Source: Verrucomicrobiota bacterium (GTDB taxonomy: Bacteria > Verrucomicrobiota > Kiritimatiellia > UBA8416 > JBHORK01). Taken from it: DNA of 64,000 nt. The number at the start of each line of letters is the position of its first letter. The stretch's first letter is position 1. The DNA lies in assembly GCA_042565725.1 (NCBI GenBank), contig JBHORK010000001.1, positions 4,995 through 68,994 of the forward strand, in the 5' to 3' direction. Under the pieces are notes generated by a model. That model searched no databases, had not been told where the DNA came from, and saw only the letters and a program-made list of their open reading frames with translations. Shown here piece after piece: positions 6,569 to 38,937 of the stretch. The position numbers and the translations under genes were made by a program.

Positions 6569-6587
6569 AGGATAATGAATATACGTT

Positions 6588-11789: not shown

Positions 11790-11801
11790 GATAATTGTCA
11801 G

Positions 11802-11934: not shown

Positions 11935-11982
11935 TTTTTTTTAATGGTAAGCTGAGCGGTGTTTTTTTAGAGAGCATTAATA

Positions 11983-22466: not shown

Positions 22467-23531
22467 ATGAAAAACACTGGTCAAACGAAAGAGCCGGAAA
22501 ATGGCCCTCTGGTTTCCATAATAGTCCTTACTGTTAACGCAACCGGTTATCTGGAAAAGTGTCTTCACAGTCTGAGCGAACAGACGTATTCAAATATTGA
22601 GATTATTGTGGTAGATAACGGCTCAACCGAAGATATTGCCGGATTTTTAGAAAAAGAATTCCCCGCAGTGCATTGCGTTCGTATTGAAAAAAATATCGGA
22701 TTTGCTGGAGGAAACAATAAGGGCGTCAAAGTTGCAAAAGGAGAATATATTGCTCTGATCAATAACGATGCCGTTGCTGATGCCAACTGGATTATGGCAA
22801 TGGTTAAAACCGCAGAGACAGACAGCATGATTGGTGCGATAGCCTCGGCCGTTGTTGATGGGAAAAATCCTTCACTGCTTGATTCGTTTGGTATGGGTAT
22901 TGCGATTGACGGCATGTCGCGCCAGGCACGGCACGGATCACCGGTTTCCGATCTCTCTGCCCCCGAACGGGTTCTCGCAGTAAGCGGATGTGCGTGCCTG
23001 CTTCGCTCAAAAACCTTGAAAGAGACAGGACTGTTTGATGAACGTTTTTTTGCCTACTGCGAAGACACTGATTTGTCACTGCGCCTGTGTTGGGCAGGCT
23101 GGAAGATTATCGCGGAACCGCGTGCAAGGGTTGCCCATTACCATTCTCATACTGTCGGCAGATTTTCTGTTAAAAAGGTATTCTGGGTAGAAAGAAATCA
23201 CTATTGGGTAGCGCTTAAGAATTTTCCTTTCTTTTTGGTTTTCCTTATACCTTTAGTCACTTTATGGCGTTTGGTTATCCAGTTATATGTGTTGATAGCC
23301 GGGGAAAGGGCATTGACGGCTTTCGTCAAAACGGGAGGATTCTGTAAGGTTGGTCTGTCTGTTGTTGGAGCAAATCTGGTCGCGCTTTCAGGTGCCCCAT
23401 CCATGATAATGGCCGGGCTTTTTTCTGATTGCCCCAAACGCATCAGCACAGGAGAGATGATCAGGCTGTTGCTGAAATACAGGCTATCGGTCTATGAAAT
23501 CATTACAGGCAAAACAGCGAAGCGGGAATAA
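22467..23531 (+). CDS. GT2 family glycosyltransferase with C-terminal membrane segments
   Basis: VSIIVLTVNATGYLEKCLHSLSEQTY...IIVVDNGSTED, DxD-type motif; 354 aa. Confidence 0.8.
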   Translation: MKNTGQTKEPENGPLVSIIVLTVNATGYLEKCLHSLSEQTYSNIEIIVVDNGSTEDIAGFLEKEFPAVHCVRIEKNIGFAGGNNKGVKVAKGEYIALINNDAVADANWIMAMVKTAETDSMIGAIASAVVDGKNPSLLDSFGMGIAIDGMSRQARHGSPVSDLSAPERVLAVSGCACLLRSKTLKETGLFDERFFAYCEDTDLSLRLCWAGWKIIAEPRARVAHYHSHTVGRFSVKKVFWVERNHYWVALKNFPFFLVFLIPLVTLWRLVIQLYVLIAGERALTAFVKTGGFCKVGLSVVGANLVALSGAPSMIMAGLFSDCPKRISTGEMIRLLLKYRLSVYEIITGKTAKRE

Positions 23532-23879
23532 GAGGAAATTTGAAATTGGAAATTTGGCAAAGAGCCAGAGGGCTATGTGATAGGGGTAGGTAGTTATTTA
23601 AATTAGCCTTTGTATGGTTGGGCTGGCTTCCGCCGGGCGGCGGATGTAAACCGCAGGACGCATTTCGTTTTCTGATCCGCCGCAGGTCGAGAAGGATTCG
23701 AAAATTGGATCAGCAGATTGCCGCAGGACCAAGGCGTCGAAGGTTGAGCTGGATACGTATCCGCGAGATCTTCGAGAACGATGGGCATGAGGTGATATGC
23801 GGGTCCGATTTTCGAACGAAATGCGTACTGCATATTAAGAAAAAGCACTTAAAATGGAATTTTTTAGAACCGAGAAACC

Positions 23880-25046
23880 ATGGACGACAACAAAAAAATA
23901 ATCATTTGCGCGCCGCACGTGTGGAACACACCCTATAAGGTCGGCTGCCACCACTATACCAGGTGTTTCTCAGATAAAGGATGGGACGTTGCCTACTTGT
24001 CTGCGCCGATCAGCCCTTTCCATATTCTGTATTATTTATTTTCTTCCAGGCGAACCGGGATGCATATGCCGCAAAGATGTAATTCGTGGCGGAAGGGTGG
24101 GGAATATGCAGGCAAAGCATGGACTTATGTTCCTTTCGGTTTTATTCCCGTTGCTAACTGTTTCCCTTTTAACACGTCATGGGCAATCAGAAACGCGGGT
24201 AAAGCTCTTGTTCCCTCGTTAAAGAAAAAACTTAAACAAAAAGGTTTTGATCGAGCCGATGTCATATGGATTGACAGCCCGTTGTTCGGATATCTCCTTG
24301 ATATGATTCCTCATAAAAGAAGCGTTCTACGAGTGGCGGATAACCTTTCCGGCTTTCCGGAACTGGGCCGCAATGTCATTGAAGCCGAAAATAAACTGGC
24401 AGGACAAGTGGATGTTGTTGCTGTGACTTCGGCATTGCTTGAAAAACAGGTCGCGGAAGCTGGAGCCCGGGAAATTGTTAGACTCCCTAATGGTGTTGAT
24501 TTTGGTTGTTTCGCAAACGATACGCATCCGGAACCTGTGGATATAACCTCAATTCCCCGCCCCAGGGCAGTTTATGTCGGTTCCATTGAGCGGTGGTTTG
24601 ATGATAGTTTGCTTACATACGCCGCTCAGCACCGAAGTAATATCTCGTTTGTTATAATAGGACCCCATAAAAAGGACTCTTTCCCCGAACTGGAACGTCT
24701 CCCAAACGTTTATTTTCTGGGAAAACGGGAGCATAAGCAAATACCCGCATACCTCAAACATTCAGATGTAGGATTAATCCCTTTTAAGAAGTTGCCCCGC
24801 ATCGATTACGCAAACCCGATTAAACTCTACGAATATATGGCTGGCAGCCTGCCGGTCGTCTCTACAATACATACAACCCTCAAAGAACTTGGCTCGCCGG
24901 CATTATTCGCTGAGACTGAAGAGAGCTTCGTGAATAAGCTGGATGAAGCTTTACGGAACGCTTCATCCCTGAAAGAAGAAAGCCTCAAATTCGCGAAAGA
25001 AAACACATGGGCAAAACGGGTTGAAATAATTAATCAATATCTATGA
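23880..25046 (+). CDS. GT4-family (GT-B) glycosyltransferase
   Basis: C-terminal EYMAGSLPVVST motif (E-x7-E region of GT4 retaining enzymes). Confidence 0.7.
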   Translation: MDDNKKIIICAPHVWNTPYKVGCHHYTRCFSDKGWDVAYLSAPISPFHILYYLFSSRRTGMHMPQRCNSWRKGGEYAGKAWTYVPFGFIPVANCFPFNTSWAIRNAGKALVPSLKKKLKQKGFDRADVIWIDSPLFGYLLDMIPHKRSVLRVADNLSGFPELGRNVIEAENKLAGQVDVVAVTSALLEKQVAEAGAREIVRLPNGVDFGCFANDTHPEPVDITSIPRPRAVYVGSIERWFDDSLLTYAAQHRSNISFVIIGPHKKDSFPELERLPNVYFLGKREHKQIPAYLKHSDVGLIPFKKLPRIDYANPIKLYEYMAGSLPVVSTIHTTLKELGSPALFAETEESFVNKLDEALRNASSLKEESLKFAKENTWAKRVEIINQYL

Positions 25047-25086
25047 CCCGACCGTTGCTACATTAGCTTTCTTCTGCTACGATTAG

Positions 25087-25346
25087 CCTGAATATTGCAC
25101 GAACAAAACAGAATGTTTAATAAAAATGGAATAAATACAGGGTGGCATAAAAATTCTCTAAAGAAATAACAAAATACAAATTGTAATCTTTAGTTTTTGG
25201 AGGGAATATTCTGTTTTGTTCGCCTGTTGGGTGAGCCCACAGCACAGAATCACCTTTGTTCTCAAGGGTAACGCGGTATGTTATACAGCATTACCCTTGA
25301 CGCCGCGGCGATTCCGCACTGTGAACTCATGCAATGATCAGGTTAG
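25087..25346. repeat. ~260-bp dispersed structured repeat, copy 2, ending 4 bp before the GT2 start codon
   Basis: Collinear with 6314-6568; same internal inverted repeats and hairpin. Confidence 0.75.
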
Positions 25347-25350
25347 TCAT

Positions 25351-26226
25351 ATGAAATTGCTTAGTATAATTATTCCGATCCACAATGCTGAAAATTCTAT
25401 CGGGCGTACCTTGCAGTCTTTGGACAGGATGGCTGTAAGGTCAAAAAACAGTTGTGAGCTTATTATTGTTGACGACGGTTCAACGGACAATAGCACGCAG
25501 GTCGTTGATGAAAAACAATCCGAACTGGACGATTTTGATATCAAACTGTTTGCGCAGGAGAATAAAGGGAGCGGGAGCGCGCGAAATGCGGCTTTAAATA
25601 AATGCGAGGGAACATGGATACTCTTTCTTGATGCCGACGATGAACTGTTTTCCGACCCCGTTCCTGTTCTTGAGCAATATCCCGATTCCTCCTGTATTGG
25701 GTTTTCCGTTAACTTATATAAAGATCCGCGGCACAGAACAGTGGTTCTTCCGACTCGTGTTACACAGCGGAACTATCTCCGCGTTTTTACGTCCAGGAAC
25801 CCTTTCGCAATCTCAAGTCTCATTTTTAAAAAGGACCGAATTACAACAATGTTCGATGAGAATTTCATGTATCTGGAGGATTGGCTGTTCTGGGTTATGA
25901 ACCCTGATATTTTCAAGGAAATGGAAATGTGTTCCGCCCGCATGATTGCGAACATTCATTGGCATCCTGACAACAAAACATCCAACGAGCTTTTACATGG
26001 CAAATACAGGCAAAAAGCCGCTGAAACAATGATGGATTATTTCGGTGATAAGCTTGATCCCAAACAGAAAAATAATCTGCGGATCCAGGCTGATATAGGA
26101 AGGATTCAGCAGGGCGGAAGAACTCTTGGGGCTTTGCTCCCGAAAATCCCCTGTAACATGACTTTATACGCAAAGTTAATTATGTACTATTTAAAACTGG
26201 CTCGACCATTCCAGCCATTTAAATAG
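25351..26226 (+). CDS. GT2 family glycosyltransferase
   Basis: MKLLSIIIPIHNAENSIGRTLQSL...IIVDDGSTDNS; start at ATG 25351 (the ORF-track start at 25216 lies inside the repeat). Confidence 0.8.
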   Translation: MKLLSIIIPIHNAENSIGRTLQSLDRMAVRSKNSCELIIVDDGSTDNSTQVVDEKQSELDDFDIKLFAQENKGSGSARNAALNKCEGTWILFLDADDELFSDPVPVLEQYPDSSCIGFSVNLYKDPRHRTVVLPTRVTQRNYLRVFTSRNPFAISSLIFKKDRITTMFDENFMYLEDWLFWVMNPDIFKEMEMCSARMIANIHWHPDNKTSNELLHGKYRQKAAETMMDYFGDKLDPKQKNNLRIQADIGRIQQGGRTLGALLPKIPCNMTLYAKLIMYYLKLARPFQPFK

Positions 26227-26240
26227 AAAGCGAAAAAAAG

Positions 26241-27227
26241 ATGTATTTACTGATTGGTCCATATCCGCCGCCGCTTGGCGGTATAAGCGTCTTTATTAAA
26301 AGATACCAAAGAGCCCTTGCAGTAAAGGATATCCCGGTCGAGATAGTCAACTTTACCGCGATGACAAGTATCCGGAAACTCGGGTTCATGTTCAAAATTG
26401 TTTTCTCACCGTATCCTTATACCTTCCATCTTAACGCATTTTATTTCCTCGTCATGACCGCGCTCCTGCTGCGCCCATGGCGCGGAAGAATAATCTTTCA
26501 CAATCATTCGACAAGGACTTTGGATGATTTTGACGCTAAACGGAGAATGGTTTTCAAATGGTTTATTCGCAAAACTGATGAAATTATTTTTGTCGGTTCG
26601 CACCTGGTTGACGATTACAAACGTCATGGTTTCTGTCTCCCGGACAATATAACGATCAAAAATTCATTTCTGCCGCCACCGTCGGAAGATGAGCCGGGCA
26701 TACGTCAAAAACATTCAAATGATACCGTTGATTTTGTAAAGAATCACAAGCCGCTTATAATAGCCAACGCGTCACGTTTGACCTTCTATAAAGGTGTGGA
26801 CTTGTACGGACTGGATATGTGCGTAGAGTTGGTCGCTAAATTGAAACCGCAGTTTCCGGGGATAGGCCTGCTTTTCGCGCTTGTTGAAGTTCAGGATGAA
26901 GATTATTTTGAAAGAATCAAAAAACGAATAAATGAACTCAAGATTTCGAACAATTTTTACTTCATGACGGGAGACTATGAGCTCTGGCCGTTATTCAAGG
27001 ATGCCGACTTAATGATAAGGCCAACTTCAAGCGATGGCTACGGTATAAGCGTAGACGAAGCCCTGAGTCAGGGTTGTCCTTCAATAGCAAGTGATGTGTG
27101 TGGACGGGCAGAAGGCGCGATTACGTTCAGGTCCCTGGACCTTGCCGATCTGCACCAGAAATGTACGAATGTTTTGGCCGATACCGCTCTGGAGGATCAC
27201 CATAGATCGCAACAAGCAGGGGAATAA
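26241..27227 (+). CDS. GT4-like glycosyltransferase
   Basis: MYLLIGPYPPPLGGISVFIKRY N-terminus and ISVDEALSQGCPSIASD C-terminal motif; 3' end overlaps the convergent GT2 by about 100 bp, so one terminus may be shorter. Confidence 0.65.
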   Translation: MYLLIGPYPPPLGGISVFIKRYQRALAVKDIPVEIVNFTAMTSIRKLGFMFKIVFSPYPYTFHLNAFYFLVMTALLLRPWRGRIIFHNHSTRTLDDFDAKRRMVFKWFIRKTDEIIFVGSHLVDDYKRHGFCLPDNITIKNSFLPPPSEDEPGIRQKHSNDTVDFVKNHKPLIIANASRLTFYKGVDLYGLDMCVELVAKLKPQFPGIGLLFALVEVQDEDYFERIKKRINELKISNNFYFMTGDYELWPLFKDADLMIRPTSSDGYGISVDEALSQGCPSIASDVCGRAEGAITFRSLDLADLHQKCTNVLADTALEDHHRSQQAGE

Positions 27228-28149
27228 TTATCCGCCGCGTCAATAGCGCGCCAAGTCCATGCGGTAAAGATGCGGCAAATGCAATAAACAGTCTTTTAGC
27301 AAACGGCAAATGCTTTGCGCAGTGTTTTGTCTTGATTCTCCAGCCGGACTCGATTTCTTCGTCGAAATTAAGCACAATGTAATGTCCAATAAAGCTATAG
27401 AGTTTTCTGCGTACATTTTTCAAAATCGCCGGGCTGATTTTTTCGTCATAGCCCAGCGCCCGATCAATGACTATCATGGCGCATGCCGACTGTATACGCG
27501 AAATGCTCAGGCTGTCCTCGCGTAATCGTAACTTTGTGCATGTTTTTTTTATGCAGGCAAGCGGTCGTTTTCTTGACACTTTCATCCACAAATCCCAATC
27601 AGCTGAACTTCGTAAAGACACATCGTACCCGCCGGCTTCTTCAAAACATTTTCGCCGAATCATAGAGGCAGGATCAGCCATGAAGTTTTTGTTTAGCAAT
27701 TTCTCGAAAGCATTTTCGAAGATCACCCAATCCTTTTCGTCGAACCGAATACCGCGCTCCTGAAAATAATCAATAGATTCCCTCCCTTCAATTAACATGT
27801 TTCCGCTCACTGCAGCAACTTCTGGATGATTTTTCATGAATTCTGTTTGAGCCCCAAGACGGCCTGGAAGCATAATATCGTCCGAGTCATGAAAGGCAAT
27901 CAAGTCACTTTGAGCAATCTCCATACCGCGCGTTCTTGCCGCACTGAAACCAGCGTTCGTCTGATATTCTGAAACGATACGACCTTTATAGCGTTGCAAA
28001 ACCTTCTGCGTATCGTCGGTTGAACCGTCATCCACTACAATTACCTCGAAACCATCAAAATCCTGCGCCAGAACAGAATCAATGGATTCAGCTGTTAACC
28101 CGGCTCGATTATACGTTGGAATAACTACACTGACTTTTGGCTCTAACAT
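27127..28149 (-). CDS. GT2 family glycosyltransferase
   Basis: VSVVIPTYNRAGLTAESIDSVLAQDFDGFEVIVVDDGSTDDT. Confidence 0.8.
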   Translation of the reverse strand: MLEPKVSVVIPTYNRAGLTAESIDSVLAQDFDGFEVIVVDDGSTDDTQKVLQRYKGRIVSEYQTNAGFSAARTRGMEIAQSDLIAFHDSDDIMLPGRLGAQTEFMKNHPEVAAVSGNMLIEGRESIDYFQERGIRFDEKDWVIFENAFEKLLNKNFMADPASMIRRKCFEEAGGYDVSLRSSADWDLWMKVSRKRPLACIKKTCTKLRLREDSLSISRIQSACAMIVIDRALGYDEKISPAILKNVRRKLYSFIGHYIVLNFDEEIESGWRIKTKHCAKHLPFAKRLFIAFAASLPHGLGALLTRRIIIPLLVAIYGDPPERYRPKHSYISGADRQGPGT

Positions 28150-28177
28150 TCTTTAATTACTCCATTACTCCCATACG

Positions 28178-28906
28178 TCACTTCTTATAAGCATGCACAT
28201 GATATCCAAAGCACAAAAGTTCTGATGAGCCATTATCTTTTTTGCTGAAGCGTAAGAGCATTCGCTGCATAATCAAAACACTCAGCAATTCGAAGAACCT
28301 TGGCTTACTTTTTGAATAACGACTTGAAACAGAGGATATTCTGCAATTCTCCTGCGCGATATATTCAAAAAAATTACCGTTTGGGGTTATCTCGGTGATT
28401 TCTAAACCATTCTCAGTCAGGTGTTTTTCATACCAATACTTATTGAAACCTGTGCAGAAATGATACGGAGAGAAATGTGTCAACGAGCAGAATGGAGCAG
28501 TAATAATCAAGTGCCCTCCAGGTTTGAGTAAGCGTGAAAACTCTTTTATTGCTGGAACCGGATTGGGCAAATGCTCCAGAACTTCTATGCACATTACAGC
28601 ATCAAAAGATGAGTTGGGTTGAGGAATTGAAATAATATCACTGACTATATCCAGTTTTCCGTAATCAAACTCACTTAATTGCAGAGCCGAGGAGTCACCC
28701 TGCCCATCATACCTTCCGAAGTCTTGCGAAACATAATCCAAATGCTTGCAGAATTTGCGATAGCGCTGTGTTCCTGCTCCCGCATCCAATATTCTGCTGT
28801 TTTCAGGAATGGAACGAATTGTTTCTTCCAGCCACCGTTCACGCGTACCTTCATTGTTCACTCCAACGCTGGGTAAGAAAGATTTGAAAAAATTCATAAT
28901 TTTCAT
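28178..28906 (-). CDS. Class I SAM-dependent methyltransferase
   Basis: Motif I ILDAGAGTQRY; post-II/III region FDAVMCIEVLEHLPNP...LLKPGGHLIITAP. Confidence 0.8.
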   Translation of the reverse strand: MKIMNFFKSFLPSVGVNNEGTRERWLEETIRSIPENSRILDAGAGTQRYRKFCKHLDYVSQDFGRYDGQGDSSALQLSEFDYGKLDIVSDIISIPQPNSSFDAVMCIEVLEHLPNPVPAIKEFSRLLKPGGHLIITAPFCSLTHFSPYHFCTGFNKYWYEKHLTENGLEITEITPNGNFFEYIAQENCRISSVSSRYSKSKPRFFELLSVLIMQRMLLRFSKKDNGSSELLCFGYHVHAYKK

Positions 28907-28916
28907 ATTTTAGCCT

Positions 28917-29798: not shown

Positions 29799-29810
29799 TG
29801 CTTAATCATC

Positions 29811-30605: not shown

Positions 30606-30674
30606 CCGTTTCTTATTCCTTGATTCATATAACTCTTTTTTAGTGCTTTTTGCGGTTAAATAATTTCTCTTCTC

Positions 30675-31580: not shown

Positions 31581-32638
31581 ATTATCTCACTGCGCAGCAT
31601 GAAATCGGCCAGACCCGATATAGTTCCTTGCCATTGTTTGAACCCTGTGTAATGCGCCTTAAGCGCAGTATTGCCTATTCCCTTTAAATCAAGACAAGCT
31701 ATTTTATCCCAGTCCTGTTTTATGGATAAAGGAAAATAATGATACTTCCCCGGACCGGAGAACAAATGTGACGCGTAAGAACCAAAGATTCTTTTTATCC
31801 TGAATGACAAGTCTTTTTCATGTGGGGCCGGAAACAAATAGCCGGATTCACAATGTTTTATGTATTCGTTCATTGTAGGTTTGTCAAAAGCAAAAACCGC
31901 GCAGCCCCTTGCCATTGCTTCAAGAAAAGTTAAACCAACGCCTTCCCTTAGTCGAGGTGCTAAAAGGATATTAGCCTCCCGCATTCCAGCCAGATATTCA
32001 TCGCGCGAAAGATTGGCAGGCAGTTCTTTTACAATTGTTTTGCCTAATCGTGACGGTAACGGATAAGAAACGCTGCTGTTCAACGACGGATCAGTCTGCG
32101 CGCGGAATATCAACCTGTCTATATTGAGGACTGAACAAAACTTTTCCAGGAAGCGAGGGTTCGTTATCCCGCGACGGTTCCAATAAGCCAGGACCCGTTT
32201 GTCGCTCCATTGTGCGGCATGATATTGTGAAGGATCACAATAATAACAAGCTCTAAAAACGTGCAAGCCGGCCCTTTCAGCCTTTTGGGCAACTGCATCG
32301 GAGAAAGCTATTATACGTACATTTATCGATAGCGTATCCCACCATGATTGATTGTAGTTGTAAGCCTGGTCCCACATGGGTACCCATACAATCTTGACGT
32401 CTTTTTTGCTTGAGAGATCAGGAGGCGGAGGGAACATGCAGAAAATAAAAGGTTTAGCGCCGGGTGCATGGTCCGACGGATCAAATTTCTTGCCGTCCCA
32501 GGCCGTAAGTTTTAAATCGATATGTTCACGCAGTGGATTTACCAGTATATCGCTGAACGCGGAACTTACATTAACGTGCCATTCAGGACAATATGCGCAA
32601 ACAGTCTGAGCCATTAGTATTTCCTCGGTTTTGCTCAA
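31577..32638 (-). CDS. GT4-like (GT-B) glycosyltransferase
   Basis: C-terminal REGVGLTFLEAMARGCAVFAFD motif; 4-bp overlap with the downstream GT2. Confidence 0.65.
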   Translation of the reverse strand: MSKTEEILMAQTVCAYCPEWHVNVSSAFSDILVNPLREHIDLKLTAWDGKKFDPSDHAPGAKPFIFCMFPPPPDLSSKKDVKIVWVPMWDQAYNYNQSWWDTLSINVRIIAFSDAVAQKAERAGLHVFRACYYCDPSQYHAAQWSDKRVLAYWNRRGITNPRFLEKFCSVLNIDRLIFRAQTDPSLNSSVSYPLPSRLGKTIVKELPANLSRDEYLAGMREANILLAPRLREGVGLTFLEAMARGCAVFAFDKPTMNEYIKHCESGYLFPAPHEKDLSFRIKRIFGSYASHLFSGPGKYHYFPLSIKQDWDKIACLDLKGIGNTALKAHYTGFKQWQGTISGLADFMLRSEII

Positions 32639-32662
32639 CCTCTGAACCGGTAATATTTGCAG

Positions 32663-33430
32663 TTACGATTCGGCCGAAATAACGGGAACGAGAGAAAAAG
32701 TATTTTCGGTCGGCGTATCTGTAACAGTAAATGGTCCTTCAAAGGGACCATTTAAGCAATTCCATTCGTATTTAAACCCAAGACCAACAAGGATCGCATC
32801 CAATTCTGACATTGTCCATTCACGCAGATGCCAGTAATTCCTGGGTTGCCCGTTTGGAAGCGTGTTTTGGGGCTGACGATTCGGAGTGGTAATAAAAATC
32901 GATCGCCGAGCCACCCTTGCCATTTCTAACAACATACCTTTGTAATTCTCTGTATGCTCAATGACTTCCACGCATGTTACGACATCAAAAGTCTTGTCTT
33001 CGAAAGGAAGGCGTTTGCCATCATATAACATAACTTTTCTGATATGCGGATGTTCTTCAAATATCCGACAGCCACGCTTTACAGCTAAGGGGTCTACATC
33101 GATTCCGACAAGATTATTCACCTTGGCAGCCATAATCTGCAAGCCGTATCCCAGCCCAAACCCCAGGTCAAGTATGGTGTCTGTTGGTTTCAGATATTTG
33201 TCCCGGCAAAGAAGATAAGCTTCGACCTGGGCCGGAACCTCCAATGGATTATCAAGGGTGGAATACTCAGAAGGATGCAGCAGAGAGGAAGGTTGCGCGC
33301 AACACTTCAAAAAACGGTTCCACACTGCCCGAATGCCGGCAGTGATTATTGGGGGGATAATGCTGACGGCGATCTTTTGCGCATACTCCTTCAAATGTCT
33401 CATGAAATCACTTGCCTTTCTAATGTTCAC
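32663..33430 (-). CDS. Class I SAM-dependent methyltransferase
   Basis: ILDLGFGLGYGLQIMA motif I; FDVVTCVEVIEHTENY. Confidence 0.8.
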   Translation of the reverse strand: MNIRKASDFMRHLKEYAQKIAVSIIPPIITAGIRAVWNRFLKCCAQPSSLLHPSEYSTLDNPLEVPAQVEAYLLCRDKYLKPTDTILDLGFGLGYGLQIMAAKVNNLVGIDVDPLAVKRGCRIFEEHPHIRKVMLYDGKRLPFEDKTFDVVTCVEVIEHTENYKGMLLEMARVARRSIFITTPNRQPQNTLPNGQPRNYWHLREWTMSELDAILVGLGFKYEWNCLNGPFEGPFTVTDTPTENTFSLVPVISAES

Positions 33431-35439
33431 TTTACGTTTTTTTGCCCGATAAAGTAAATAGAGTTAAACATATAAACATCGGTAGGAATAATTACATGTT
33501 TTCTGAACAGCTCGTTATAATTTTTGGACAGAAATTCTAATATTACATCTTCCGCTACACGGAGCGGATGGCCCGCGTCGTAAATCTTGCCGGTAAGAAC
33601 GTTAATTGCTTCGTTTTTAATGAGTTTATCATGAAATATCAGAATCCCGCCCGGCGCCGTAAGTGAAATAATATGTTCAAAAACTTTGGGTGCAAGAAAA
33701 CAATGTTCAAGCACATTGATCATAACAACCAGGTCAAATCTCTTATCGCTGGTAAAATTCTCAATCGGTTTAGCAATCGCATGGACTTTCCTGCCAAACC
33801 ATCCACCAAGCCGCTTGTGTTTATACGCGCAGTGCTGATGAGACAGATAGCTGTTGATAAGCGGATCGAGCAGTGTCACTTCGCCGCATTTGATATGCTT
33901 CAGAATACGGGCCATGTTGGTAAATGGGCCGCAGCCTATCTCAATGGCTTTGTCAAAATACATGCCCTGAATAGTTTTATAGTTGTCAAAATGTTTCTCA
34001 TGCTCACTGTTTCGATCTTCTCGGGCTTTACATCCGGCTTCCATCCATGTTCTTTGTTCGTAACGCTGTGCTTCTTTCCAGCGCCCCATATCTACCTGGG
34101 TAATGCCCTGTCGCTCTTGAAGAAATCGTTTGTCGTTCCTTGACGCAAGATTAGTTGTCGCGTCGTTACCAACAGAGATATTAAGATGTTCGTCAACGAA
34201 AAACGACTCCATTCTGGTTTCTCGCTTGTCCGTTTTGCGATCAATAACATGGCGTATAGCATTCTTCATATTTAGCGAGAAAACATCAGCAGAAAATTTC
34301 GCAATTGCCGCTTTTCGTGTTCGTTGAGCCATTTCTTCGCACCATTCCGGCGGGCGTTGTGACAGGTCTTTAACGGCTTCTACAATTCCTTCTATAGAAC
34401 AGGTGTTCAGGGTAATGCCATAGTCATTTGTGTCTATATTTGTTTCCTGGCTTACCACAGGGATTAAACCCTGATGCATACACTCCACCGCAGATCCCGG
34501 TTGGCCTTCGGCACAAAATGGCTGAATTACAAAAGCGCACTTGTCCGCTAATTCGTAGAACTGTGAACTTCTTGCTGGAACCAGCCCGACCAGATGAATG
34601 TTTGGATAATCGTTAAGTTCGCGCCTGTAAAGTTTGTAAAATCCAGGACTCATCCCCTGGCAAATATATAGATGTGTATCCATCTGGACAAACGCTTCAA
34701 GCAGGATGTCCAGGCCTTTATGAATATTCCCGCTGCCCGAGAAGAACAGGAAATTGCTTCGTGCAGCAGAAAAATTCTTTTTAATCTGATCATAATGATC
34801 ATCTGGATACGCAGCGTTATTTAAATTAAGAACAGAGGGAAATTGTGAGTATGATTCTCTGGCATGTTTGTTGCCTAAGCAAATGATCGCGTCTGCGGAG
34901 CGATTAGCATGTTCTTCACTGTGATTGATCCAGCGATCGTGGGGCAGGCGAACCCCGCGCCGTTCTTCAAGCTGGCGAAAACGTTCAGCTTCTTTCCTGT
35001 TAAAATCCTTCCAGTAAATACCTGTCGAAAAATATATTTTAATTGTGTCCACGGACAGGTTTCGCGCGATACCTTCAAAGTTATACCCACCATTGCCAAT
35101 GAAGAGGTCATAGCCCTTGCGGGGTACAAATTTAGTATCTGTGTATTGTATGACATCTACCGAGTAACCTAGTTCATTAAGAACATTCACAATACTGCGC
35201 GCGATTCCAGTATTACTGAATTGAACGTTGATAGGATCATCTGGAGATAATCTGAACGGGTCGGTTATATATGATAGTAAGGCCCGTTTCGATTGGTTGC
35301 TGTTGTTTGATGACGCGCCTGCATCATAAACGGGGGCGGGATGCTTCTGCCATCTTGCGCAAAGCCAATTCTTGACAGTTTTTGTGACTCCGCGCCGAAT
35401 GCCGGCTGAAATTAGATTTAAAATCTCCATATGTTTCAC
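33427..35439 (-). CDS. Fusion protein: N-terminal GT4 glycosyltransferase plus C-terminal class I SAM methyltransferase (670 aa)
   Basis: GT4 region ...FFSGSGNIHKGLDILLEAF...AEGQPGSAVECMHQGLIPVVSQ; MT region IEIGCGPFTNMARIL...FDLVVMINVLEHCF...APGGILIFHD. Confidence 0.7.
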   Translation of the reverse strand: MKHMEILNLISAGIRRGVTKTVKNWLCARWQKHPAPVYDAGASSNNSNQSKRALLSYITDPFRLSPDDPINVQFSNTGIARSIVNVLNELGYSVDVIQYTDTKFVPRKGYDLFIGNGGYNFEGIARNLSVDTIKIYFSTGIYWKDFNRKEAERFRQLEERRGVRLPHDRWINHSEEHANRSADAIICLGNKHARESYSQFPSVLNLNNAAYPDDHYDQIKKNFSAARSNFLFFSGSGNIHKGLDILLEAFVQMDTHLYICQGMSPGFYKLYRRELNDYPNIHLVGLVPARSSQFYELADKCAFVIQPFCAEGQPGSAVECMHQGLIPVVSQETNIDTNDYGITLNTCSIEGIVEAVKDLSQRPPEWCEEMAQRTRKAAIAKFSADVFSLNMKNAIRHVIDRKTDKRETRMESFFVDEHLNISVGNDATTNLASRNDKRFLQERQGITQVDMGRWKEAQRYEQRTWMEAGCKAREDRNSEHEKHFDNYKTIQGMYFDKAIEIGCGPFTNMARILKHIKCGEVTLLDPLINSYLSHQHCAYKHKRLGGWFGRKVHAIAKPIENFTSDKRFDLVVMINVLEHCFLAPKVFEHIISLTAPGGILIFHDKLIKNEAINVLTGKIYDAGHPLRVAEDVILEFLSKNYNELFRKHVIIPTDVYMFNSIYFIGQKNVK

Positions 35440-35529
35440 ATCTCAATATAATACGTTTGTAAAACCCAGAAACAGCCGGCTTATTGTACTGATGATAACA
35501 TGTCTCAATCGGCAACTTATTGAACAGGG

Positions 35530-36303
35530 TTACAGACCACTTCCTTTTTTAGCTTTGTCATTCCGCAAGATAATCAGATGATTCTTGCCACGAGGATCAG
35601 TGACTTTTTCCTTTTCAAGCGTAAAACCAGGAAGAAAGATTAGGTATTGTGTGGAAGTTTGTTTGATATTCACATGCATCCTGCTGTACCTAGATCTGTT
35701 GGAACTAATAGGGGTATCAATATATAGATGCCCCCCTGGTTTAAGTAGCCGAGCGACGTTGTTAAAGACAATCTTTAGCTCCCAGTCGAACAAATGTTCC
35801 GCAATATCTATCATCAAGATTCCATCAAACGGTTCTGTCTCGAATCTGGGAAGAAATTCCACAATATCTGCTTGAATGACTTCTGCTTTCCCAAGAATTT
35901 TACGGGAGATTTCAATAGCGGCAGTGCTGTAATCGACACTGACAACTCGTTTAGCTTTTTTCTTTAGATGAAGCGAGAGTTCCCCCCTTCCACAACCTAG
36001 ATTCAGGAATACGCCTCCATCTATATTTTGAATCTCGGCAAATACGGATGCTGATCTGCCTGACAGTTTCTCGCCTTGGCTTATCAAAAATTCTCGGCTT
36101 CCCTCACAGCCGTCAGGATCAAGATAATACTCTCTCGTATGGATATCCATGGGCACCTTCAGTTTCCGAAAGCCAGAGTATAATTGCAACACCCCTAACA
36201 TTGAGAGCAGTTCTAATAAATCACCGTTGCTTATACGCCTAATTGCCCTCCTGAAGGCAGTCAGAAAAGGTATTCGTCGTAATATGTTTTTTAATTGTTC
36301 CAC
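35530..36303 (-). CDS. Class I SAM-dependent methyltransferase
   Basis: FLNLGCGRGELSLHL motif I; FDGILMIDIAEHLFD...LLKPGGHLYIDTP. Confidence 0.8.
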   Translation of the reverse strand: MEQLKNILRRIPFLTAFRRAIRRISNGDLLELLSMLGVLQLYSGFRKLKVPMDIHTREYYLDPDGCEGSREFLISQGEKLSGRSASVFAEIQNIDGGVFLNLGCGRGELSLHLKKKAKRVVSVDYSTAAIEISRKILGKAEVIQADIVEFLPRFETEPFDGILMIDIAEHLFDWELKIVFNNVARLLKPGGHLYIDTPISSNRSRYSRMHVNIKQTSTQYLIFLPGFTLEKEKVTDPRGKNHLIILRNDKAKKGSGL

Positions 36304-36362
36304 ATTTCCATCAAATTAAAGATAAGATGAACCATTATGTAGTCTATTACACAAATGGTATA

Positions 36363-37667
36363 TTATTTAGTCTGTTCAGTTTTCCAATCTAAAACAGGTG
36401 CGATTACACCCTGCCTTCCCTGAGAGATCTTAGATTCTACGCTTCCGGTATCTATAACCTCAAACATAAGAACACGAGGCAGCTCATCCAGGATACGAAC
36501 GTTGGGGATGCTGGAAGCCACGTCAATATAGTAACGGCCAGGGCGAAGGTATTCAGGCGGAATATGACATTGGGCAATATACCGTCCCGGTTCGCGCTTT
36601 GTTGTTATGGATGAAGGATTGTTGTCCACATCCGTGCTGGTGAAAACACAGTGCCCACTGCTATTCCAAAGTATAAATCCAATATTGGCACTTCGAAAAG
36701 GGTGCAGTATTTCATATTCAATTTCTAGATTGCATCCTTCAATCAGGTCAACTTGGGCTGTAATCTCACCCATTGGTTTGCGAACGCGGACACAACTGAA
36801 ACGGAAATCATCACTCAATTTATGCCGCCTTTGTGGGGCTGTTGCCTCTCCGCTTAAGGTGATATCTGCGTTAAGATAATGATCTACCACGCTTTTAATT
36901 TTGCCTGTCTTAACTATATTACCATTATCTAATAGAATTCCCCTTGAACATAAATTCAGAACCGTTGCCATGTTATGGCTTACGAATAATACTGTGCGGC
37001 CTTCTTTGGCAACATCATTCATCCTGCCCAGGCATTTCTTCTGAAACGCTGTATCGCCAACGGCCAGCACTTCGTCGACAAGAAGAATATCCGGCTCCAG
37101 ATGAGCGGCCACGGAAAAGGCCAGACGCACATACATCCCGCTTGAGTAACGTTTGACAGGTGTATCTATGAACTTCTCAATCTCTGCAAAGCTTACGATT
37201 TCATCAAACTTCTTTTCTATTTCCGCCTTGCGCATCCCCAGTATCGCGCCATTAAGAAAGATGTTTTCGCGGCCCGTCAGTTCCGGATGAAAACCCGTGC
37301 CCACTTCGAGAAGGGAACCGATACGCCCACGGATATCCGCCTCTCCCTCAGTTGGCGCGGTAATACGTGACAGAATCTTTAATAACGTAGATTTCCCTGC
37401 TCCGTTGCGGCCAATTATACCCAGCACTTCTCCTTCCTTTATATCCAGATTAATATCCCGCAGGGCCCATATATAACCAGAAGCAGTATTTGTCGGACTG
37501 TCATCCGTGCCGCCGCTTATCAGTGTGTGTGCGGCACGTTTCGCTTTTCGGCTGTAATGACGCCCCATGGCCATCAGGACTTCACGAAACGTACGGGAAA
37601 AATCAACTGTCTCGCCCAGTCGATATCGCTTTCCCAAACCTCTTATACTTATTGCAGTCTCACTCAT
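36363..37667 (-). CDS. wzt: Polysaccharide ABC exporter ATP-binding protein with C-terminal carbohydrate-binding extension (Wzt plus Wzt_C-like)
   Basis: Walker A GIIGRNGAGKSTLLKIL, ABC signature YSSGMYVRLAF, Walker B LLVDEVLAVGD; about 170-aa C-terminal beta-rich extension like Wzt_C of O-antigen exporters. Confidence 0.8.
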   Translation of the reverse strand: MSETAISIRGLGKRYRLGETVDFSRTFREVLMAMGRHYSRKAKRAAHTLISGGTDDSPTNTASGYIWALRDINLDIKEGEVLGIIGRNGAGKSTLLKILSRITAPTEGEADIRGRIGSLLEVGTGFHPELTGRENIFLNGAILGMRKAEIEKKFDEIVSFAEIEKFIDTPVKRYSSGMYVRLAFSVAAHLEPDILLVDEVLAVGDTAFQKKCLGRMNDVAKEGRTVLFVSHNMATVLNLCSRGILLDNGNIVKTGKIKSVVDHYLNADITLSGEATAPQRRHKLSDDFRFSCVRVRKPMGEITAQVDLIEGCNLEIEYEILHPFRSANIGFILWNSSGHCVFTSTDVDNNPSSITTKREPGRYIAQCHIPPEYLRPGRYYIDVASSIPNVRILDELPRVLMFEVIDTGSVESKISQGRQGVIAPVLDWKTEQTK

Positions 37668-37671
37668 AAAG

Positions 37672-37995
37672 TGTATCTCGTATTGCGTGAAGCGTATTTC
37701 GTATCTTGTTTTCCGCTTATTATAATTTCTTTATTAAATTTCTTGTCATTCGCGGTCGAAATCGGGATTGGGATCGCTATCGAGAAACAATATGGGACTT
37801 GGGTACGGGAAATGGGATGTTTGTCGTTTGAGAATAAGTGAAAGAACAATCTTCTTGTTATAAAACAGGGAAAATCGATTTCGATAGCGATAGCGATTTC
37901 GACGAGGTGTAACCATATGCCCAAATCCCTGAAGTTTCTTGTCTTAGTTTCTCCGCTTTTCATGTTTCCTTTTCACTCTTCACGAAATACGCTTC
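37672..37995. mobile_element. MITE-like ~325-bp structured element with perfect 17-bp terminal inverted repeats, inserted between wzt and wzm
   Basis: Left end cgtgaagcgtatttcgt, right end acgaaatacgcttcacg (exact reverse complement); nested internal inverted repeats gtcgaaatcg...atcgctatcga / tcgatagcgat...cgatttcgac; no ORF. Confidence 0.6.
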
Positions 37996-38000
37996 ACGTT

Positions 38001-38855
38001 TCAAACAATATCTGCAAAATACCGTTCTGTCTTTCTGAAATAATATAAGCCGAATCCCAGAAGACACATTGCGACAACAAATCCGGTGCCCATAAGAATC
38101 CATGGCGGCCCGACCGCGTGTTCCGCCGTCATCCTGTTGTGCATTAAACACCACCTGAATCCTTCAACAACTCCACCCATAGGGTTTAAACCATACAGGT
38201 ATTTCCATGCCCCCCAGGCTTTGGGTATCTTGCTGAAGGGAATTATTACCGAGCAGAACATCCAGATCTGAATCACAAATGGAATTACATACCTGATGTC
38301 ACGGTATTTTACGTTAAGCGCGGAAAATACAAACCCGGCACCAGCCGCAGTCGCAAAAGCAGTGATGATCAACAATGGCGCGAGAAAAACAGTCATTGCC
38401 GGCAGTGTCTTCAGGAACAACATGAAAAAGATTAGAACGCAAAATGAGAGCGCAAAATCAACAAGTGCGGCTATACATGCGCTTAGCGGCATGAAAAGGC
38501 GGGGCATATAGATTTTTGTGATCAGATTGGCTGAACCCACCAGCGAACTGCTTGCCATGCTTAGAGAAGTCGAGAAATACTGCCAGATTACCAGCCCCGA
38601 GAGATAAAAAAGAAAAGGATGCAGTCCGTCCGACGGCAGTTTCGCGACTCGCCCGAAAAGAAAGTAGAAGATAATAGCGGTTATTGATGGTACCAGTATA
38701 GACCAGGCGATACCAAGCAAGGTTTGTTTGTATTTTACCTTAATGTCACGCAATGTCAGGAAATACAGCAGATCCCTGTATCGCAGCATTTCATTGAAAT
38801 CCAGTGAGATCCAGCCTTTGGGCGGACGTATGCGCGTTATGGGCTTGGCTGTCAT
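38001..38855 (-). CDS. wzm: ABC-2 type polysaccharide exporter permease
   Basis: 284 aa, 6 TM segments, ABC-2 family pattern; adjacent to wzt. Confidence 0.8.
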   Translation of the reverse strand: MTAKPITRIRPPKGWISLDFNEMLRYRDLLYFLTLRDIKVKYKQTLLGIAWSILVPSITAIIFYFLFGRVAKLPSDGLHPFLFYLSGLVIWQYFSTSLSMASSSLVGSANLITKIYMPRLFMPLSACIAALVDFALSFCVLIFFMLFLKTLPAMTVFLAPLLIITAFATAAGAGFVFSALNVKYRDIRYVIPFVIQIWMFCSVIIPFSKIPKAWGAWKYLYGLNPMGGVVEGFRWCLMHNRMTAEHAVGPPWILMGTGFVVAMCLLGFGLYYFRKTERYFADIV

Positions 38856-38898: not shown

Positions 38899-38937
38899 CG
38901 CGTATCTCGTGAAGCGTATTTTGTATCTCGTATATCG
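38899..38937. repeat. Copy of GTATCTCGTGAAGCGTATTT(T/C)GTATCTCG motif, about 45 bp upstream of the wzm start
   Basis: cgcgtatctcgtgaagcgtattttgtatctcgtatatcg. Confidence 0.65.

Follow-up and report, generated by a model that had tools for sequence, protein, structure and literature searches.

The terminators characterised in the Klebsiella and E. coli model systems carry a coiled-coil ruler (PMC11231755), and the nearest solved Wzt carbohydrate-binding domain, that of Aquifex aeolicus, binds a 3-O-methyl-mannose/rhamnose cap (PMC9445017). In Geobacillus stearothermophilus NRS 2004/3a, the methyltransferase of WsaE caps the terminal rhamnose and so ends elongation, and no ruler has been described. 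Some P. syringae isolates carry a TET operon in which the glycosyltransferase and the methyltransferase form one fusion, and the P. aeruginosa CPA system uses two small methyltransferases that lack a ruler and the other extra domains of WbdD; knocking out both abolishes the polymer. The chain end in R. etli CE3 is 2,3,4-tri-O-methylfucose, made by several methyltransferases. In systems of the GacI/GacJ/GacL type, a GT-C transferase decorates an ABC-exported polymer. GacJ, a DUF2304 member, stimulates GacI, as Rv3632 stimulates PpgS (bioRxiv 10.1101/180810).

We analysed a 64,000-nucleotide stretch of a Verrucomicrobiota genome (the window). A cluster of about 20 kb within it most likely makes a methylated surface polysaccharide, whose chemistry we infer and which probably contains fucose, exported by an ABC transporter that inspects the end of the chain. 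It belongs to a recognisable type of known pathway and is not a new system. The domain matches of its ORFs, judged against the gathering cut-off of each Pfam family, lie far beyond chance. All ORF coordinates given by an earlier, sequence-only reading were reproduced by the ORF list, and Pfam returned the domains it had named (Wzm, Wzt with Wzt_C, four stand-alone SAM methyltransferases, a 670-aa GT4-methyltransferase fusion and GT11). However, its left boundary at 22467 was too narrow: the locus reaches upstream to 18946, with PMT_2+TPR, GT2 and DUF2304 genes in the same neighbourhood. In total there are 11 glycosyltransferase and five methyltransferase modules. Eleven genes form a minus-strand operon from 38855 to 27127, tightly packed (gaps of -4 to 90 nt) with the sole exception of 333 nt between Wzm and Wzt. 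Within the 64-kb window we found no GDP-fucose genes, no initiating transferase genes, and no WaaL ligase or LPS core genes.

The first gene of the operon encodes Wzm (38001-38855, minus strand), an ABC-2 permease (PF01061, ABC2_membrane; 60.1 bits) with at least four hydrophobic segments, 34-49% identical to Wzm of related loci. Wzt (36363-37667, minus strand; NCBI protein MFC1496874.1) comprises an ABC ATPase (ABC_tran, 81.9 bits) and a C-terminal extension that, judged by sequence and modelled structure, is a genuine carbohydrate-binding domain. Wzt_C matched aa 288-408 with 37.4 bits (Pfam cut-off 30.4), and the best PDB match was full-length A. aeolicus Wzt (8dku; E = 1.8e-63), the alignment (aa 66-384) extending into the binding domain of that structure. 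The AlphaFold2 model of the domain (aa 265-434; 36366-36875, minus strand), the presumed chain-end reader, is all-beta with a pLDDT of 86.6. When this model was compared with the PDB using Foldseek, the top 16 matches were all Wzt carbohydrate-binding domains (6o14/8dky, 2r5o, 5hno), the best being 6o14 (E = 3e-7, TM 0.75); this bears out the sequence-only reading, for which the fold of the Wzt tail, jelly-roll or not, was a key check. At the two cap-contact positions comparable with A. aeolicus Wzt, assuming a one-residue numbering offset, Ala348 is kept and Thr346 is replaced by Asp. Among related loci the binding domain is 21-58% identical, compared with 60-66% for the ATPase domain.

The proposed elongation/termination enzyme is the 670-aa fusion (33427-35439, minus strand; NCBI protein MFC1496872.1), in which a retaining-type GT-B glycosyltransferase (aa ~35-405) precedes a methyltransferase module (aa ~405-670). 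The Pfam match to Glycos_transf_1 (aa 218-376) was marginal (27.6 bits, cut-off 26.4), but this was settled by the AlphaFold2 model (pLDDT 91.3), which places a Rossmann methyltransferase domain after a GT-B domain; Methyltransf_12 matched aa 499-600 with 40.8 bits. The model contains no coiled coil, its longest helix being at most 24 aa. In Foldseek searches the glycosyltransferase half resembled GT4 enzymes, among many of them the mannosyltransferase of methylmannose polysaccharide (7qsg), and the methyltransferase half resembled NodS. An EX7E motif lies at E311-E319, K241 is invariant and the SAM motif is intact. Full-length homologues are 49-66% identical. The methyltransferase module defines a family of its own, a small one with 609 representatives in a set of 1.84 billion proteins, also found inside multi-glycosyltransferase/methyltransferase proteins; the GT4 half likewise occurs as a module in multi-glycosyltransferase proteins, like polymerase modules. 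Overlapping the fusion stop by 4 nt is the start of MT_c (32663-33430, minus strand; Methyltransf_11, 56.3 bits), a class-I SAM methyltransferase that is conserved alongside the fusion's GT4 half. Its orthologues (48-60% identical) lie directly 3' of the fusion in four loci (L001, L002, L004, L005), and of 77 related loci 26 have an orthologue no more than 1.5 kb from the GT4.

The other three methyltransferases are variable components. MT_a (35530-36303, minus strand; class-I, Methyltransf_11, 60.2 bits) gave only generic PDB and NCBIfam matches, and its one orthologue seen (53% identity, in L051) also directly follows Wzt. The other two, both putative decorators, flank GT11: a DUF268-type SAM methyltransferase (29811-30605, minus strand; DUF268 51.4 bits, cut-off 25; Methyltransf_11 29.1 bits), 12 nt upstream and without a match in PDB or NCBIfam, and the class-I enzyme MT_d (28178-28906, minus strand; Methyltransf_11, 52.2 bits), 10 nt downstream, whose generic PDB matches include a D-glucose O-methyltransferase (6uv6). 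The concern that the methyltransferases might belong to small-molecule or lipid families found no support, the matches being generic class-I ones, all below the NCBIfam cut-offs. Two of the enzymes have a link with glycans, through the occurrence of the fused module's family inside multi-glycosyltransferase proteins and through the pairing of MT_c with the GT4. The methyltransferase density that had been called unusual is indeed high; it is not exceptional, since related loci have two to four and WsaE, CPA and TET provide precedents. The analogy drawn with WbdD failed: no methyltransferase of the locus has a kinase, a coiled-coil ruler or sequence similarity to it, and none is WbdD-like.

GT11 itself (28917-29798, minus strand) is a predicted GDP-fucose-dependent alpha-1,2-fucosyltransferase. 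Its family assignment is solid (PF01531, 111.3 bits against a cut-off of 23.9), and it contains GGLGNQMFQYA, HIRRGDY and NSTFSWWG, which we take to be hallmarks of the family. The terminal Fuc-alpha-1,2 epitope of the sequence-only reading, like its methyl cap, is a prediction about chemistry. Six further GT2/GT4 genes, each above its Pfam cut-off, lie between 22467 and 32638. Candidates for backbone synthesis are GT4_c (31577-32638, minus strand; Glycos_transf_1, 46.4 bits) and GT2_d (30675-31580, minus strand; Glycos_transf_2, 61.5 bits). GT2_c (27127-28149, minus strand; Glycos_transf_2, 114.6 bits) ends the operon, overlapping by 101 nt the 3' end of GT4_b (26241-27227, plus strand; Glycos_transf_1, 53.7 bits). 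GT4_b is the last of a plus-strand set that also contains GT2_b (25216-26226; Glycos_transf_2, 91 bits), a GT4 enzyme with a GumK_N-like N-terminal domain (23880-25046; Glyco_trans_1_4 44.3 bits, GumK_N 42.9 bits) and GT2_a (22467-23531; Glycos_transf_2, 91.9 bits), which has a C-terminal hydrophobic stretch (two overlapping windows, aa 248-277). Almost every glycosyltransferase of the locus is single-module.

Farther upstream on the plus strand is a GT2 (21302-22081; Glycos_transf_2, 85.9 bits) like polyprenyl-phosphate sugar synthases of the GacI/PpgS/AglJ type, whose best NCBIfam matches, PpgS (92.5 bits), AglJ and Dol-P-hexose transferase, each fell below the respective cut-off. After a 4-nt gap follows a small DUF2304 membrane protein of the GacJ/Rv3632 type (22086-22460, plus strand; PF10066, 69.2 bits; three to four hydrophobic segments), a putative activator of that GT2. 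A GT-C-type membrane glycosyltransferase with C-terminal TPR repeats (18946-20991, minus strand; PMT_2 27.5 bits, cut-off 26.1; many TPR families; at least six hydrophobic segments in aa 81-400) is a candidate extracytoplasmic transferase. We found no flippase for a lipid-linked donor in the locus.

In the closest loci bearing the fusion, conservation is limited to Wzm, Wzt, the fusion and MT_c, and all other glycosyltransferases and methyltransferases differ. Saccharibacteria genomes, by contrast, keep the order of the backbone glycosyltransferases and GT11, and the operon is therefore a mosaic. GT4_c orthologues (39-41% identical) directly follow the GT4 in the Saccharibacteria loci L045, L047 and L050, and the GT11 orthologues in Saccharibacteria loci are 36-38% identical. 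GT2_d orthologues (49-54%) hold the same relative place in L039, L045, L047, L049, L050 and L065. The conserved core, the mosaic make-up and the upstream GacI/GacJ/GT-C module all go beyond the sequence-only reading. A binding domain was present in all five loci having the methyltransferase module fused or adjacent plus Wzt in range. It was at least 38% identical to that of the window in four of these five, versus four of 20 loci without the module (Fisher p = 0.023, from a small sample and ignoring relatedness); the fifth, L005, carries the fusion, but its domain is merely 21.6% identical. Two Saccharibacteria loci with GT2_d and GT11 in common have binding domains only 23-26% identical to the window's, and for three others that share backbone enzymes, BLAST matched none of the binding domains. 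The type of binding domain thus appears to track the fusion's methyltransferase module, and not the backbone enzymes or GT11.

We favour, somewhat more than we doubt, an ABC-transporter-dependent surface-glycan pathway with a methyl cap read by Wzt. The chain would start on a polyprenyl carrier, through an enzyme encoded outside the window, and, to judge from domains and conserved gene order, would be extended at the cytoplasmic face by soluble GT2, GT4 and GT11 enzymes, with the fusion's GT4, GT4_c and GT2_d as likely backbone builders and GT11 adding fucose. The fused module, helped by MT_c, would O-methylate the sugar at the growing end, stopping extension and forming the cap; its recognition by the Wzt binding domain, whose presumed ligand it is, would license export through Wzm/Wzt. 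Without a coiled-coil ruler, the length of the chain would be set by extension and methylation competing within the same polypeptide. The three variable methyltransferases would supply internal decorations. Once exported, the glycan may receive a side-chain sugar from the GT-C/TPR enzyme, with the GacI/GacJ-like pair supplying the polyprenyl-phosphate donor, and would finally be joined to lipid A-core or another acceptor.

That acceptor is the subject of a first alternative, possible though on the unlikely side, in which the cluster makes something other than an LPS O-antigen, namely a protein (S-layer or pilin), cell-wall or lipid-anchor glycan, or a defined-length oligosaccharide from 11 single-action glycosyltransferases. 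This alternative is about where the glycan ends up and can hold together with the proposed export mechanism. The same gene order is found in Saccharibacteria, Chloroflexota and other lineages that, to our knowledge, lack LPS, and relatives of the fusion's GT4 are present in Methanoregula archaea. The missing WaaL ligase and LPS core genes and the nearly uniform single-module glycosyltransferases point the same way, as do S-layer glycan loci, which use wzm-wzt, a methyltransferase-glycosyltransferase fusion and a TPR protein. However, Verrucomicrobiota are diderm bacteria having LPS, ligase and initiation genes are frequently unlinked to the glycan cluster, and no specific protein acceptor is indicated in the window.

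About equally doubtful is a composite neighbourhood, in which the GT-C/TPR enzyme (18946-20991) and the GacI/GacJ-like pair, possibly with the plus-strand glycosyltransferases, serve another pathway, a candidate being modification of the type IV pilin, whose gene is 81 nt away, in the way that TfpW glycosylates pilin in P. aeruginosa. A pilB/pilC cluster is located upstream, and the pilin gene (18505-18864) and the GT-C gene converge; the two are, however, not co-transcribed. Neither the plus-strand genes nor the GT-C gene has an orthologue in related Wzm/Wzt loci, and the absence of a flippase from the locus would fit a separate pathway; against this, PMT_2-family genes also close L001 and L002/L003, and three-component systems that add side chains to ABC-exported O-antigens are established (PMC11127046).

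In two Armatimonadota loci (L008, L013) the GT4 and MT_c sit next to a Wzt that has no binding domain, and the GT4 is also present in loci without an ABC transporter in range, so the pair is not strictly a cap-making device. Less likely still is that all five methyltransferases are internal decorators, as in methylmannose polysaccharides, and that Wzt reads another cap such as the GT11 fucose: these occurrences, the resemblance to 7qsg, known sugar caps (Kdo in K. pneumoniae O12 and O4) and the glycosyltransferase-added terminal sugar considered as cap for the R. tropici locus favour it, but the binding-domain type tracks the fused module, the nearest solved domain reads a methyl cap, and the fusion has the arrangement of the terminator WsaE.

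Compared with known systems, the methyl-capped pathway that we favour shares with the polymannose system of E. coli O8/O9a (K. pneumoniae O5/O3; WbdA polymerase, WbdD terminator) ABC-transporter export, a C-terminal jelly-roll domain on Wzt, which in O8/O9a reads a non-reducing-end modification, and, as proposed here, SAM-dependent methylation as terminating chemistry. Unlike WbdD, the methyltransferases of the locus have no membrane-anchoring tail, and the proposed terminating one is part of the same polypeptide as a glycosyltransferase, whereas WbdD recruits one. Aquifex aeolicus WzmWzt (8dku, 8dky, 6o14) is the closest solved relative of ATPase and binding domain, although the binding domains are only 17-19% identical; the paper on its cap does not name the cap-forming enzymes. 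The upstream module resembles GacI/GacJ/GacL of Streptococcus pyogenes and PpgS/Rv3632 of M. tuberculosis in having a GT2 of the polyprenyl-phosphate-HexNAc-synthase type, DUF2304 directly next to it and a GT-C nearby, but differs in that its GT2 scores below the PpgS cut-off, its GT-C is of the PMT_2 type with TPR repeats and no flippase gene accompanies it. The Rhizobium loci for fucose-containing hydrophobic O-antigens (R. tropici CIAT 899, R. etli CE3) similarly have several glycosyltransferases beside Wzm and a Wzt with binding module; unlike this locus, they encode gmd, fcl and rml genes, and WrtF, the fucosyltransferase of R. tropici, is a GT-A-fold enzyme outside the GT11 family. The Pseudomonas loci (P. 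syringae TET; P. aeruginosa CPA, PA5455-PA5459) are alike in gene content (wzm, wzt with binding domain, O-methyltransferase, GT4) and also evolve as recombining mosaics. Their polymerase, with two GT4 modules, makes a rhamnan, with rhamnose-synthesis genes alongside, whereas our locus has 11 glycosyltransferase and five methyltransferase modules and no sugar-nucleotide genes. WsaE, likened by architecture, also adjoins wzm-wzt and combines methyltransferase and glycosyltransferase in one polypeptide, but there the methyltransferase precedes two rhamnosyltransferase modules, whereas here a single GT4-type module comes first, the methyltransferase last, and an extra partner methyltransferase is present. 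WsaE and the Pseudomonas TET/CPA loci are the closest known kinds to this locus.

Eleven genes on the minus strand are packed tightly into an operon that runs from 38855 to 27127. They include Wzm (38001-38855; PF01061, 60.1 bits), Wzt (36363-37667; NCBI protein MFC1496874.1; ABC_tran PF00005, 81.9 bits) and four stand-alone class-I SAM methyltransferases identified with Pfam, i.e., MT_a (35530-36303), MT_c (32663-33430), a DUF268-type enzyme (29811-30605; DUF268 plus Methyltransf_11) and MT_d (28178-28906). A 670-aa fusion protein (33427-35439), which matches NCBI protein MFC1496872.1 (annotated "methyltransferase [Verrucomicrobiota bacterium]") with 100% identity, combines Glycos_transf_1 (27.6 bits, a marginal score) with Methyltransf_12 (40.8 bits), so that Pfam finds five methyltransferase domains in the locus. 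There is also a GT11 enzyme (28917-29798, minus strand; PF01531, 111.3 bits, cut-off 23.9), and the locus contains six further GT2/GT4 genes; on each ORF the expected Pfam families scored above their curated cut-offs. All of the ORF coordinates in the sequence-only reading were reproduced by our ORF map, and the families that it had predicted were matched by Pfam.

Housekeeping genes flank the locus: on one side are a sigma-54 response regulator and the ATPase, platform and pilin genes of a type IV pilus, and on the other are NqrA-F together with a polyprenyl-diphosphate synthase and a MenA-like prenyltransferase; porins and cytochrome-c and haem biosynthesis genes occupy the remaining window. 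Among the scanned ORFs of at least 100-120 aa in the 64-kb window there was no sugar-nucleotide pathway (gmd/fcl, rml or man), no initiating phosphoglycosyltransferase and no WaaL-type ligase. Two convergent glycosyltransferase genes, 26241-27227 (+) and 27127-28149 (-), overlap at their 3' ends by 101 nt, which could be genuine or an assembly or frameshift artefact. Two genes are divergent from Wzm. The product of the first (38988-39572, +) is a TPR protein of 194 aa that has a hydrophobic region at its N-terminus and contains a charged stretch of helix-like sequence; that of the second (39642-40715, +) is rich in lysine, is 357 aa long, starts with a sequence resembling a signal peptide and matched no family. 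In the Geobacillus S-layer glycan locus, too, there is a TPR gene, wsaA.

Nested inverted repeats lie in the 333 nt that separate Wzm from Wzt (37668-38000), one pair having perfect 17-nt arms (CGTGAAGCGTATTTCGT) 279 nt apart and the other 29-nt arms that are 76% complementary. The 17-mer occurs five times in the window, against zero expected. Its copies outside the gap are at 6093-6109, 11044-11060 and 38908-38924, and its sites include one 53 nt upstream of the Wzm start, one upstream of an HtrA-like gene and one upstream of a histidine-kinase gene. It extends to a motif of about 30 nt, CGTATyT-CGTGAAGCGTATTTCGT-ATCT, perhaps a small repeat element or the site of a regulator. There was no Rfam match in 18000-41000, and promoter and terminator scans performed no better than on shuffled sequence (24 sites versus 25.3 expected, and 11 versus 11.5). 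In a related locus (L002/L003, described below) the corresponding gap, at 6524-7339, is occupied by three short ORFs, of which one has a TumE domain; that of the window is repeat-rich.

The C-terminal part of Wzt (aa 265-434), termed here the binding or reader domain, had been proposed to be a carbohydrate-binding jelly-roll, and several lines of evidence bore this out. The Wzt_C family (PF14524) matched aa 288-408 with 37.4 bits (cut-off 30.4). In sequence searches of the PDB, the top matches of Wzt were A. aeolicus Wzt, TagH/TarH and RfbE, the best being full-length A. aeolicus Wzt (8dku, E 1.8e-63) in an alignment that enters its binding domain. An AlphaFold2 model of aa 265-434 was all-beta (pLDDT 86.6), and the top 16 PDB matches of this model in Foldseek were all Wzt carbohydrate-binding domains, from A. 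aeolicus (6o14/8dky), E. coli O9a (2r5o) and R. terrigena O12 (5hno). The ligand of the A. aeolicus domain is a 3-O-methyl-mannose/rhamnose cap (PMC9445017). When we compared the cap-contact residues of this domain (L300, T346, A348, H350, H355, W362 and V380) with the window protein, Ala348 was kept and Thr346 was replaced by Asp, in an alignment that ends at about residue 348 and with an assumed numbering offset of one residue. A word-indexed search with the binding domain alone found seven relatives, which suffices for a model and not for a phylogeny. The reader domain itself is established; by analogy, Wzt would recognize a cap and then export the chain.

The methyltransferases were less informative at the level of sequence. 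With NCBIfam, nothing scored above cut-off for any methyltransferase, the fusion, the GT11 protein or the DUF268 protein. In PDB sequence searches, three of the stand-alone methyltransferases matched generic methyltransferases only, and there was no match for the DUF268 or GT11 proteins. Because these matches were generic or absent, substrate specificity could not be read from the sequences. The claim that the methyltransferases are glycan-linked stands, by context, for two of them (the fused module and MT_c), while the sequences, being generic class-I, neither support nor refute it. The fused module (aa 405-670) belongs to a small family: a search of 1.84 billion proteins gave 609 representatives at E values up to 1e-3. 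Most of these stand alone and are about 250-300 aa long, although some lie inside giant proteins that also comprise TPR repeats, further methyltransferases and modules of the GT2, GT4 and GT9 families. MT_c, for its part, is a conserved neighbour of the GT4 module, as described below. That the density of methyltransferases in the locus is unusual, as had been suggested, was not established.

The resemblance to WbdD drawn in the sequence-only reading did not hold, although a methyltransferase domain is present. No WbdD chain was among the PDB sequence matches of the fusion or of the four stand-alone methyltransferases, and Pfam detected no kinase family, of the type found in WbdD of O9a/O3/O7, in any ORF of the locus. 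Terminators of the WbdD type have an extended coiled-coil ruler with a membrane/polymerase-binding tail. The coiled coil has been described as a hallmark of the terminators in the Klebsiella/E. coli models (PMC11231755). Such a ruler is absent here, because the longest helix in the AlphaFold2 model of the fusion is 24 aa, and the stand-alone methyltransferases, of 242-264 aa with a core domain at about aa 30-220, have no coiled-coil family as judged by Pfam alone. No hydrophobic segments were found in the stand-alone methyltransferases.

The AlphaFold2 model of the fusion (pLDDT 91.3) consists of a GT-B glycosyltransferase, referred to below as GT4*, followed by a Rossmann methyltransferase. 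In Foldseek, the first half matched retaining GT4-type enzymes, including sucrose-phosphate synthase, glycogen synthase, WaaG and the methylmannose-polysaccharide mannosyltransferase, and the second half matched NodS, which methylates the non-reducing end of a chito-oligosaccharide, all of these matches being at 10-20% identity. The fusion also has an EX7E motif (E311-E319), the invariant residue K241 and, at about aa 499-503, the SAM motif EIGCG. Full-length homologues (49-66% identity) number about a dozen metagenomic proteins, and the GT4* half alone is far more widespread (45-66% identity). The fusion is encoded beside wzm-wzt, MT_a being the sole gene between Wzt and the fusion; in the related locus L001 there is none. 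GT4* is also found as one module of multi-glycosyltransferase proteins, and in the arrangement GT4*-TPR-methyltransferase. A role for GT4* as a primer or adaptor transferase is unlikely, because its behaviour as a module within multi-glycosyltransferase proteins is that of polymerase modules.

Two proteins of the GT4*-TPR-methyltransferase type, one encoded at 9878-12283 in a Pirellulales MAG (L025) and the other being P0015, are 802 and 813 aa long, and their TPR stretch occupies the place of the coiled-coil spacer in proteobacterial terminators. Giant glycan-assembly proteins of 1,466-3,239 aa (L018, 9005-13402; L064, 9893-15175; P0133, P0135, P0146 and P0149) contain GT4* or a methyltransferase module of the window type. 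They combine GT2/GT4/GT9 modules with several types of methyltransferase, including RMNT_CmcI and Methyltransf_24, and with TPR repeats.

We recovered four independent loci bearing the fusion (L001, L002/L003, L004 and L005/L006). The only orthologues of window genes that they contain are Wzm, Wzt, the fusion and MT_c; all other glycosyltransferases and methyltransferases differ between the window and these loci. A conserved triad of fusion, methyltransferase and downstream GT4 was also considered and was rejected, the downstream GT4 genes being non-orthologous by BLAST. The clusters of L002, L004 and L005 carry sulfotransferase genes (Sulfotransfer_1/3), and that of L004 also encodes a B12-binding radical SAM enzyme; these genes suggest glycan variants that are sulfated or C-methylated.

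A wider scan, restricted to one genome per species, yielded 73 additional loci in Verrucomicrobiota, Planctomycetota, Chloroflexota, Armatimonadota, Patescibacteria, Thermodesulfobacteriota, Acidobacteriota, Ignavibacteria and Methanoregula and, distantly, in Roseburia. An orthologue of MT_c lay within 1.5 kb of GT4* in 26 of the 77 distinct loci, and Wzt was in range in 30. When the binding domain was scored as present if a C-terminal tail of at least 120 residues followed the ATPase domain, 25 of these 30 Wzt proteins had it (15 with a direct BLAST match to the domain of the window), and the five without a tail were all from Armatimonadota. The methyltransferase module was fused or adjacent in eight of the 77 loci, and a binding domain was present in all five of these with Wzt in range.

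In five loci from Saccharibacteria (L039, L045, L047, L049 and L050), genes for Wzm, for a Wzt that has a binding domain and for GT4* precede some of the window's backbone genes, the order being that of the window. GT2_d (30675-31580 in the window) was found in all five (49-54% identity), GT4_c (31577-32638) in L045, L047 and L050 (39-41%), and GT11 in L039, L047 and L049 (36-38%). The fused methyltransferase occurred in none of the five, and their binding domains were 23-26% identical to that of the window (L039 and L049) or gave no BLAST match (L045, L047 and L050). Because the Saccharibacteria loci share backbone genes but neither the type of reader domain nor the fused methyltransferase, the operon can be divided into an export/termination module and a backbone-plus-fucose module, with GT4* common to both. 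The gene order common to the Verrucomicrobiota contig and the Saccharibacteria MAGs implies exchange of the backbone module between phyla.

A binding domain at least 38% identical to that of the window was present in four of the five loci with a fused or adjacent methyltransferase module, but in only four of the 20 without one (Fisher p = 0.023, in a small sample uncorrected for relatedness). The type of reader domain follows one methyltransferase family rather than the backbone enzymes, and this co-variation is the best available evidence that the methyltransferase makes what the reader domain reads.

The GT11 protein is predicted to be an alpha-1,2-fucosyltransferase. It contains the stretches GGLGNQMFQYA, HIRRGDY (the HxRRGDY donor motif) and NSTFSWWG, which correspond to motifs of the GT11 family. 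The GDP-L-fucose genes gmd/fcl, a supporting rather than a defining feature, were not among the ORFs of at least 100-120 aa scanned in the 64-kb window. A terminal alpha-1,2-fucose epitope, which had been put forward earlier, is a prediction and is not established. In Rhizobium, fucose-rich O-antigens are exported by a Wzt with a binding module, and the chain of R. etli CE3 ends in tri-O-methylfucose.

In what is termed here the upstream module, a GT2 gene (21302-22081) had polyprenyl-phosphate sugar synthases as its nearest NCBIfam families, i.e., PpgS (92.5 bits, cut-off 370), AglJ and a Dol-P-hexose transferase, all below cut-off. A DUF2304 protein (PF10066, 69.2 bits) begins 4 nt after it; members of the DUF2304 family activate GacI in S. 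pyogenes (GacJ) and PpgS in M. tuberculosis (Rv3632) (bioRxiv 10.1101/180810). A divergent gene (18946-20991, -) encodes a putative GT-C fold transferase, with a PMT_2 match (27.5 bits, cut-off 26.1), six or more hydrophobic segments and TPR repeats at the C-terminus; PMT_2 genes are also present at the end of loci L001 and L002/L003. The upstream module looks like the synthase and transferase of the three-component extracytoplasmic glycosylation already described (PMC11127046), a kind of system that includes the GacI/GacJ/GacL, Gtr and PpgS types. No flippase family for a lipid-linked donor (GtrA, Wzx or MATE type) and no such multi-span protein occurred among the ORFs of the locus. A type IV pilin gene (18505-18864, +) is convergent with the GT-C/TPR gene, 81 nt away. 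An alternative is that the GT-C enzyme glycosylates this pilin instead, and the convergent arrangement recalls pilin glycosylation of the TfpW type, TfpW being a GT-C enzyme that glycosylates pilin.

What the analysis establishes for this locus is a transporter with its reader domain, a conserved core and a mosaic structure, together with five modules for methyltransferases and eleven for glycosyltransferases. In the pathway that we propose, the glycan would be assembled on a polyprenyl carrier, its backbone being made by GT4*, GT4_c and GT2_d. GT11 would add fucose, and the flanking DUF268 enzyme and MT_d may decorate the chain. The fused module, with MT_c, would then O-methylate the chain terminus and stop elongation, and Wzt would recognize this cap prior to export; side chains may optionally be added in the periplasm. 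This methyl-cap reading is plausible and moderately supported, based on the co-variation described above.

Knowledge of chain termination and quality control in ABC-dependent glycan assembly comes nearly all from a few Proteobacteria, Aquifex and one Geobacillus. The same logic may operate in this uncultured member of the Verrucomicrobiota, where the chain-end-reading transporter adjoins a putative terminating methyltransferase. The 77-locus comparison gives a core that lacks a coiled-coil ruler and comprises Wzm, Wzt including the binding domain, GT4*, MT_c and a dedicated methyltransferase module. It indicates independent recombination of the export/termination genes and the backbone genes, even between Saccharibacteria and a phylum of diderms. 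It also provides a short list of proteins for cap chemistry, i.e., the fusion, MT_c and the Wzt binding domain. A bolder and rather doubtful proposal is that GT4* and its dedicated methyltransferases (the fused module of about 255 aa and MT_c) might be a widespread, ruler-free chain-terminating cassette, swapped across phyla independently of the backbone glycosyltransferases, whose methyl cap is read by a co-evolving clade of Wzt domains. If this were true, the cassette would span Verrucomicrobiota, Planctomycetota, Chloroflexota, Thermodesulfobacteriota and Patescibacteria, and would place polymerase and terminator in one polypeptide lacking the coiled-coil spacer that is regarded as typical of the models from Proteobacteria.

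The locus is an ordinary ABC-transporter-dependent glycan cluster of an already known type. E. coli O8/O9a and A. aeolicus follow the same logic, a methyl-type cap being read by the Wzt binding domain. The architecture of the locus is, however, closer to WsaE of G. stearothermophilus, the P. syringae TET operon and P. aeruginosa CPA than to either of these. As in the window, WsaE has a methyltransferase fused to glycosyltransferases beside wzm-wzt, although there the methyltransferase precedes two glycosyltransferase modules, whereas the window protein has one GT-B module followed by the methyltransferase. In the TET operon a glycosyltransferase and a methyltransferase are likewise fused in some isolates, and CPA similarly involves small methyltransferases without a ruler, which are jointly essential.
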